A program made the translations under genes and the position numbers. The notes below the pieces were generated by a model that saw only the letters and a program-made list of their open reading frames with translations, was not told the origin of the DNA and did not search any database. This document shows, piece by piece, positions 53,201 to 63,724 of a DNA stretch of 64,000 nucleotides. How positions within the stretch are numbered: position 1 is the first letter of the stretch; each line of letters begins with the position of its first letter. The DNA lies in NCBI GenBank assembly GCA_013239625.1, contig MU053431.1:1514485-1578484 (forward strand), read 5' to 3'. Source of the stretch: Lama guanicoe (Eukaryota).

Positions 53201-54407
53201 CTCACTGAAGAGGAGACCGCGGGTCTGAAGGGAGACGGCACCTGCCACAGGCTGGTGGGGCCGGTGCTGGGCCTTCAGCCCCAGGTAGGGTCCTGCACTT
53301 CCCAAAGCAGCAAACGACCTTGAGTCTGCGGGTTGCCAGGCCTCAGTTCGTCTGTCTTCTGTATCCAGGACCAACTTCACGCTCACGTGCTGCCTTCTGG
53401 AGCCCCCAGGAGCCCACCTGTGTTTTGCGGGCAGGGTCCTGCAGCCACCTCTGTGCCACTGGCCTGCTCTGTCCAGCGCTCTGCCGGCAGGTTTACTTCT
53501 CCCTTCAAGTGAGGACAGTGCTCGCGACCTCAGGGTATTGTTAGGACCGAGCTGCCTCAGCTAGGACAACCCCAGCGCCGGGTCTGCGGTGTGGCTGGAG
53601 ACCTGGCACGTGACCTGTGGTTCGCTCCCGCAGCTCTGCATGGAACCACACATGGCACACACGTTTGTCTCATCTGTGCAGGTGCTGGGGGTGCATGTAG
53701 GGTGGGGCAGACACAGCCCTGGTCTGCGGAGCTCCTGTCTGCCTGGAGGAGGCTGGCATGGACGTGCAGCAGGGAAATGAGGCAGAGTGTCCGGGTGGCA
53801 TCACCATCATTGACGAGGGCTCCAGGGGCTGGCCCTGCTGGCCAGCTGCTGCTAGTAGGAGGACCCGGAAGGTGGCGGGGGGCTCACACACGGGTGGCTA
53901 GTAGTTGAGCTTATAAAAGGGACGATGGGTGTCACCTGTTTGTGCCCCTCAGCCCCCAAACCATGCTGTCTGCTGCATGACAAGGGAGCCAGGCCGTGCA
54001 GACTCCTCCGCTGCCAGCTGGTGCTGTGTTGGGGGTGCTGCAGGGACAGTGGGGAGGGATGTGGTCCTCTTCCAGGTTCTGTGCCCTCTCGCCAGGCGCT
54101 TGGAGACTTGGCTTCTTCACCACCCTGGATGCCCACGAGCCAAACCTGGCCTACGTGACAGATGTGAATGGAGCACACAGGTTTTGTTTTATTTTATTTC
54201 AGAAAAATCAGAGCAACCTTTAACAATTGGAACTTTGCATACCCCCCTCCCCCTGGATTTCCCTCTTGGGAATTTAGTCTCTCTGACCTCTTGGGCCAGC
54301 AGGCAGACGGGCCACAGGGAGTGAGGTGGGGAGCAGTGGCTCTTTTTGTCAGGCCTGCACCCCCAGTTTGCCCAGCTACTGCCCGGTGTCCTGCCTTTGC
54401 CTCGGAA

Positions 54408-54922: not shown

Positions 54923-54928
54923 TTTATT
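54923..54928 (-). terminator. RBBP8NL polyadenylation signal AATAAA
   Basis: First minus-strand AATAAA I found after the stop (~590 nt downstream), followed by a GT-rich tract (GGCGTGTGT). Confidence 0.75.
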
Positions 54929-55519
54929 CTGGCTCTCTGCGACCCCTCTCTGCAGAAGGCCCTGCACCCTCACTGTCCAGTGCCTGCCTCTGGGACTCCA
55001 TGAGGGGGCGCCCGAGACTACCCCTCAGAGCTCCATGCCTGCCAGGGATGGGCGGCCAGGCACGCAGGGCCCTGGGGGTCCGGGAAGCCAGCGGAGTGTG
55101 TGTTGCCCGGAGGAGTAGGGAGCTGCCCGGGAAGGGCTGCCTCTGCTCAGCAGGGGCGGGGATGTGGCTGGAGCCTGAGCCGTCTGGGCTCCGCTCCACC
55201 AGCACCAAGTGAGCAGATGCTGGGGTAAGGGTGGGCAGCAGGGCCATTTATGAGATGGGTGGAGACGGAGAGCTTTGAAAGACCAGCCAAAGGCCACCCA
55301 CTTTGGGCTTCCCAACCCTTCTGGACGTGAGACAGGACCCAGTCTACTCCCCCACTGCTGGGCTGGTGGTGTGGCCTGTCCTGGCCACGGGCAGTGGGTG
55401 GGGAGCCCACCTGGGCAGGCTGTGGTGCCCCTGGGTCTCTTCCCAGCTGCTGTTGCTGGGTGAGAGGCTGCTGTCCTCGGGATCCCTCGGGCTCCTGGCT
55501 CCCCTAGGTTCCTTCTTCC

Positions 55520-63724
<8,205 letters not shown>

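Follow-up and report, generated by a model that had tools for sequence, protein, structure and literature searches.

The RBBP8NL locus and its last exon

The window, a stretch of 64,000 nucleotides of Lama guanicoe DNA, contains the whole RBBP8NL gene, whose modeled frame is open to its single stop (table 1). The model is identical to the alpaca RefSeq protein (P0190) at 606 of 614 residues, without gaps, and to three camel proteins at 583–586 residues. Its orthology to RBBP8NL is further supported by a CtIP_N domain (PF10482) at the N-terminus, detected with an E-value of 2e-50 over amino acids 4–123 of alpaca P0190. The position of CABLES2, on the same minus strand and ~10 kb downstream (exons 45372–40589), also fits an RBBP8NL ortholog. 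The two genes are fused in database models from a camel (P0096), Myotis (P0061), deer (P0157), and squirrel monkey (P0283), which are possibly read-through transcripts or annotation merges, and dolphin RBBP8NL proteins are labeled CABLES2. A short run of CAC/ACC triplets (59645–59672) stands just inside the intron that follows coding exon 8.

Table 1. Features of RBBP8NL in the window, with positions counted from its first letter
Feature	Position	Strand	Evidence or remark
Coding span, 13 coding exons, 614 aa	55520..63724	minus	All introns GT-AG, one stop
Exons 1–7	63664-63724, 62731-62773, 62024-62119, 61547-61659, 60913-60985, 60322-60452, 60092-60174	minus	
Exons 8–13	59684-59850, 58358-59075, 57956-58082, 57413-57483, 57172-57313, 55520-55539	minus	
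KRKR basic cluster in penultimate exon, retained; candidate monopartite NLS	57212..57223	minus	Sequence
Last intron, phase 1, 1632 nt	55540..57171	minus	Gene model and RNA contig joint
Coding part of last exon, ending KKPS	55523..55539	minus	Pairwise identity ~90% in each of the two orders, artiodactyls and bats
TGA stop at ancestral Arg (CGA) codon	55520..55522	minus	RNA contig with 0 differences over 55512-55539
Fossil of 36 ancestral downstream codons, now 3'UTR, 86 nt	55434..55519	minus	
Junction of net 22-nt deletion (21+1), common to deer	55493..55499	minus	Alignment to back-translated horse, mustelid, and deer exons
Deletion site of old TAG plus ~10–11 nt	55431..55434	minus	13-nt gap vs horse/zebra, 14-nt gap vs mustelid
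First AATAAA past stop	54923..54928	minus	Second AATAAA at 54193-54198

The last-exon stretch is single-copy in the genome (one match). Its acceptor AG at 55541–55540 is followed by A (a split codon)-S-K-K-P-S-TGA and, because the last intron is in phase 1, the frame of this exon is fixed. This is the frame assumed in the earlier note, which had been made from the letters of the window alone, and its reading of SKKPS followed by TGA (55522–55520) is confirmed both in the sequence and in the 13-exon model. A wrong last-exon frame is ruled out by the phase of the intron, given by the 13-exon model and by an RNA contig joint.

The RNA evidence consists of library contigs from a relative, ~96–97% alike to the window, and not of raw reads of the window's own animal. 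The stop is covered by contigs in three of the four runs, and contigs continue past 55150. In one of the four runs a 58-nt contig (X16, record 6) joins 57172 to 55539 with GT..AG ends; the joint has 28 and 30 letters on its sides, slightly below the tool's bar of 31, and falls exactly on the predicted sites, and the contig runs across the stop without a difference from the window. In addition, 14 DNA runs contain at least 94% of the sequence words, a measure above the level of single bases. With an open 614-aa frame, a CtIP_N domain conserved as in other orders, and spliced RNA contigs, the gene does not have the marks of a unitary pseudogene: RBBP8NL is intact, spliced, and not decaying. Skipping of the penultimate exon (57172–57313), which would enter the last exon (55507–55539) in phase 0 and yield an alternative end of 11 aa, is annotated in isoforms of Myotis, deer, horse, mustelids, and whales, and was not seen in the four RNA runs.

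The stop codon and the remains of the former tail

The earlier note had proposed that the TGA replaced an ancestral CGA Arg codon, and the comparisons support this. Codons of other mammals were solved from annotated isoform proteins that read the exon in two or three frames (dog isoforms conflict); a search of metagenome contigs for other mammals' orthologous DNA gave no match. The horse codon is CGA (from three reading frames), the zebra codon CG(A/C), and that of mustelids CCG, whereas TGA was solved in Myotis lucifugus, red deer (Cervus), warthog, and blue whale. The ancestral CGA of the horse and the derived TGA of the window, Myotis, deer, warthog, and blue whale thus form the pair expected from a stop gained at a CpG. 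Gln stands at this residue in pangolins, hedgehog, colugo, myomorph rodents, and sloth, which amounts to five origins on the accepted tree; carnivores have Pro there, and the white rhino has Gly. Gln is the residue expected if the same CpG were deaminated on the other strand, its codon being deduced from the protein. By these comparisons the CpG of the stop site is a recurrent mutation target. We infer that deamination of a methylated CpG caused the CGA to TGA change and, from the recurrence of Gln and of the stop, that the site was probably methylated in the germ line. Two residues before the stop site, the Pro of KKPS (55525–55528) toggles between Pro and Leu in bats, horses, rhinos, pangolins, some deer, bears, walrus, rabbit, and loris; the horse codon, CTG where the window has CCG, hints at another CpG hotspot within the last exon.

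The ancestral tail is still readable beyond the TGA: GRRNLGEPG continues in frame, SPRDPED...WEET follows in another frame and ends at 55434, and a CAG stands at 55433–55431. This fossil is the best match in the window for the last 37 aa of horse, cat, and gorilla (55434–55544 or 55434–55502), with E-values of 2e-10, 9e-9, and 1e-6, respectively, platypus reaching only 0.19; as judged from these values, its resemblance to the tail is above chance. The human tail given in the earlier note is found letter for letter in the gorilla ortholog (P0111).

The lesions within the fossil differ in part from those first described. From the TGA to the position of the old stop, 86 nt are present where 108 are expected, a net loss of 22 nt that, relative to horse and mustelid, can be read as an in-frame deletion of 21 nt plus one single base. 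The in-frame GRRNLGEPG of the earlier note stands, and its 1-nt frame slip becomes part of this larger loss. The same note had the old stop mutated to CAG, which does not hold: the TAG was deleted together with the ~10–11 bases that followed it. A T>C loss of the old stop is accordingly replaced by a deletion, visible as a gap of 13–14 nt against horse/zebra and mustelid, and on this alignment the CAG is former 3'UTR brought up by the deletion. The tail was indeed freed, although the codons lost number 37 relative to horse and carnivores and 33 relative to apes, instead of ~30. Its decay, also proposed before, is evident from deletions and frameshifts past the stop in several lineages. Deer have the same 22-nt loss and also miss the TAG block; in warthog a larger deletion overlaps this loss, and the sequence is joined in the same way where the old stop had been; pigs and ruminants have had additional fossil segments deleted. 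Myotis has neither artiodactyl deletion and shows small frameshifts of its own past the stop, and Pteropus vampyrus has two apparent frameshifts past the codon, which are less certain because they come from a single-frame reading in which the first base of the codon is not fixed. Within the window, the RNA contigs of the relative differ from the fossil at two sites, both of which would change an amino acid in the old frame; these differences (n = 2) are in line with an absence of constraint.

According to these alignments, all three artiodactyl lesions (TGA, loss of 22 nt, and loss of the TAG) date to the artiodactyl stem. Because they map to the same branch, the order proposed earlier, stop first and decay later, is not demonstrable in artiodactyls. 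The frameshifts and deletions past the stop differ between lineages, unlike the conserved in-frame extension that would mark programmed read-through.

Distribution of the stop and features of the lost tail

The spread of the stop was tallied over 124 species, each represented by a single protein whose last exon is in frame, among the matches listed (120 of 154 in one listing). Annotated ends that use another frame, read into the intron, or are fused were left out (e.g., three Pteropus, Rhynchonycteris, peccary, orca, panda, mink, harbour seal, beaver, Saimiri, and aardvark). Among these matches, a stop after KK[P/L][S/T] is present in 29 of 30 artiodactyl species, whales included, in 20 of 20 bat species from both suborders, and in none of 74 other placentals. 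The artiodactyls that stop comprise camelids, pig, warthog, hippo, baleen and toothed whales, bovids, deer, and musk deer. The 74 that read on are 6 perissodactyls, 30 carnivores, 3 pangolins, hedgehog, 13 primates and colugo, 16 Glires, and 5 afrotherians, and the tail is also kept in sloth, platypus, echidna, two birds, and two lizards. Outgroups are thus longer and in frame, which polarizes the change as a C-terminal loss. RefSeq proteins of alpaca, camels, cattle, pig, whales, and bats already end at the stop. A recent or camelid-limited event is ruled out by these RefSeq ends and the tally, the same end being found across Artiodactyla and in bats; that most mammals might stop after KKPS, which would have undone the earlier note's reading of a truncation, is contradicted by the other placentals.

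The lone artiodactyl exception is the serow (P0045), which has Cys at the stop codon and 33 more residues, giving a last exon of 40 aa. In this single assembly the protein reads through the ruminant fossil, further deletions having restored the frame, whereas sheep, argali, and takin stop; the serow sequence may be a stop reversion, a polymorphism, or an error. Disturbed ends were also noted in the slow loris (P0296), which has no stop, and in the blind mole-rat Nannospalax (P0298), which has an apparent frameshift near the end.

Where it is kept, the tail is constrained, as judged from protein comparisons. In carnivores it measures 43 aa in 30 of 30 species and is 85% identical, compared with 71–81% in the disordered middle of the protein. 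When placentals are compared with non-placental amniotes, its basic cluster, the second of two, shows 50% identity and the middle 26–35%, and both clusters are conserved to platypus and birds. The CtIP_N domain shows similar pairwise identities in truncated and other groups (91% in artiodactyls, 87% in bats, and 86–89% elsewhere). A bipartite nuclear localization signal (NLS) consists of two basic clusters 10–12 residues apart. The earlier note had suggested the loss of an NLS-like tail, and the second cluster is indeed removed; the upstream KRK is kept (in all 16 artiodactyl proteins examined and in 12 of the 13 from bats), and the best-conserved residue lost is not basic but the terminal Glu at position −2. 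The upstream KRKR is a candidate NLS of the monopartite class. Of the second cluster, the last Lys is already gone in nearly all laurasiatherians, and a scan for the bipartite pattern, which matched 18 of 20 bats and 1 of 30 carnivores, did not separate truncated from intact proteins.

Glu at −2 occurs in 71 of 75 intact placentals, being missing in four, and in 39 of 44 family-level amniote representatives; it is absent from the shark, lungfish, and frog proteins. It is the best kept of the last 12 positions, and this holds even for species with a shifted stop, two geomyoid rodents among them. Binding of DCAF12 to Glu-Thr ends is reported to rely most on the −2 Glu (PMC9929631; PMC8161014), and the ancestral tail, with Glu at −2 of its free C-terminus, would fit a DCAF12 C-degron by its sequence. 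The predicted consequence of the truncation is the loss of this C-degron. That the tail end was a real DCAF12 degron we regard as a tentative proposal, somewhat more doubtful than probable; nothing on RBBP8NL as a DCAF12 substrate was found in the literature or in three small supplement files.

All 49 truncated species have KK-x-x as their new end, in which Lys occupies positions −4 and −3 in the manner of a dilysine signal. The KKxx COPI signal is defined for the cytoplasmic tail of a transmembrane protein (PMC3521961), and no hydrophobic segment was found in the three proteins scanned (maximum hydropathy 0.53–0.69).

Origin and consequences of the short C-terminus

The relationships of RBBP8NL were addressed by a maximum-likelihood tree of 31 proteins from which the last exon had been removed, the group of bats plus artiodactyls being specified before the tree was seen. 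Every order is recovered in the tree, and artiodactyls group with perissodactyls (83/88; 831 of 1000 bootstraps). Bats plus artiodactyls appear in 0 of 1000 bootstrap trees and are rejected by the approximately unbiased (AU) test (p = 0.039), a marginal value that reflects exons lying as far as 8 kb away from the stop. Two independent CpG transitions, one in bats and one in artiodactyls, are likely because of these two results and of the Gln found in five other lineages. The identical codon and position in both orders would also fit a single mutation, if a TGA polymorphic in the early laurasiatherian radiation had then been sorted (hemiplasy), to be fixed in bats and artiodactyls and lost in perissodactyls, carnivores, and pangolins. 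Laurasiatheria are described as showing heavy incomplete lineage sorting (PMC5453332; PMC9141728), and their radiation as rapid, with markers for every pair of orders, among which four retroposons and eight deletions join bats with cetartiodactyls (PMC5453332). In the same data set this pair has the fewest retroposon markers of any, 4 of 102 (PMC5453332). Given that the RBBP8NL tree and AU test speak against the grouping, that Myotis and artiodactyls share no downstream lesion, and that the CpG was hit recurrently, with Gln in five lineages, we consider a single sorted mutation unlikely. That in artiodactyls the TGA arose after the frameshifting deletion, as a compensating stop against an aberrant extension, is improbable. 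Without the TGA the frame of the window would run on for 164 more codons, and all three lesions do lie on one stem branch; the Myotis TGA, however, exists without that deletion, so that the stop is viable alone, and selection would already act against a frameshift that led into a long tail.

The loss in two orders, at one and the same codon, of a tail that is kept from platypus, birds, and lizards to primates could also point to adaptation, if it were useful in epithelia to be rid of the degron or of the second basic cluster, or to expose KKxx. All truncated species share the KK-x-x end, and soluble Scyl1 is reported to bind COPI through a similar end (PMC2832016). Yet intact species preserve the KK pair just as well, which makes its conservation nothing new; the proteins show no transmembrane segment, the serow annotation reads through again, and the end is also disturbed in loris and mole-rat. 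An adaptive loss is quite unlikely in our view, and we hold equally low the fuller version in which a degron tail as old as amniotes was cut twice and a short, stabilized KKxx form was favored in bat and artiodactyl ancestors; fixation is more likely to have been tolerated than selected. Continued translation of the fossil, by read-through of the stop or by a phase-2 splice into the old frame, is very improbable. In phase 2 the frame stays open over 64 aa, among them the SPRDPED...WEET part, an old low-quality alpaca model (P0003) enters this frame through a cryptic donor near 56604 (56603–56606), and frame-shifting splicing of last exons is reported to be widespread (PMC7392665). Against this, read-through would exit the old frame after nine codons, a phase-2 product would not have the Glu-Thr end, the sole joint seen into 55539 is in phase 1, and parts of the fossil were further deleted in pigs and ruminants; the cryptic-donor splice of P0003 had no RNA support in the contigs of the four runs. 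As to an assembly or sequencing error in the window's genome, independent assemblies of four camelid species and of 25 other artiodactyls share the end and an RNA contig crosses the stop unchanged, which makes an error negligible and bears out the view of the earlier note that the lesions are real.

It is probable, from the sequences compared, that a CGA to TGA change, likely occurring twice by CpG deamination, ends the RBBP8NL of artiodactyls (whales included) and bats six residues into the last exon, and removes 37 residues in which a degron and half of a nuclear-import motif are predicted. Nonsense-mediated decay (NMD) spares stops in the last exon, and the new stop would escape it. The silenced tail would then have decayed separately in the two orders, through the 22-nt deletion and the TAG loss on the artiodactyl stem and through other frameshifts in bats. 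With the CtIP-like N-terminal domain and the upstream KRK retained, the truncated protein would probably still enter the nucleus; the truncation may have been tolerated because the N-terminal domain and this first basic cluster remain. With loss of the Glu-Thr end, a type that CRL4-DCAF12 can bind, the protein is predicted to be more stable.

Nonsense mutation of Arg (CGA) to TGA at a CpG hotspot is a known type. CpG sites are hypermutable (PMC13299492). The CGA to TGA change, with the mirror-strand Gln at the same site, likens RBBP8NL to such cases; unlike CpG nonsense alleles in disease, the RBBP8NL stop is no disease allele or gene loss, the gene being intact and expressed. The stop-codon "subtractions" of Andreatta et al. 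(2015; PMC4494051) are alike in that a point mutation creates an earlier stop, the freed codons join the 3'UTR, and the change is polarized by outgroups, and the serow read-through would go the other way, as an "addition" in their terms. The subtractions described there are polymorphisms or differences between close species in yeast, flies, and rodents, whereas the RBBP8NL codon is fixed across two mammalian orders. The free Glu(−2) end likens the ancestral tail to the CRL4-DCAF12 degrons reported for CCT5, MAGEA3, and MOV10 (PMC9929631; PMC8161014), from which it differs in that its link to DCAF12 is by motif and conservation only. RefSeq records of RBBP8NL have the same short end and do not describe it as a derived, recurrent truncation. 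No paper on an RBBP8NL truncation or its recurrence was found in the literature searched, mainly titles and abstracts, and a term search of an RBBP8NL preprint (10.1101/2024.01.21.575810) returned no mention of a domain, localization, or the C-terminus.

The type of event is itself ordinary. What looked like the oddity of a single species is, however, a character at the level of orders, apparently arisen twice at one codon. It is a clear caution that sharing a stop at a CpG says little about kinship in the contested laurasiatherian tree. The truncation also provides a first concrete handle on the almost unstudied RBBP8NL, as the part dropped ends in a conserved degron-like motif. If the double loss were adaptive, it would constitute a natural, replicated degron-loss experiment across two mammalian orders; and if the degron is real, cattle, pig, and bat models would regulate RBBP8NL unlike human and mouse.
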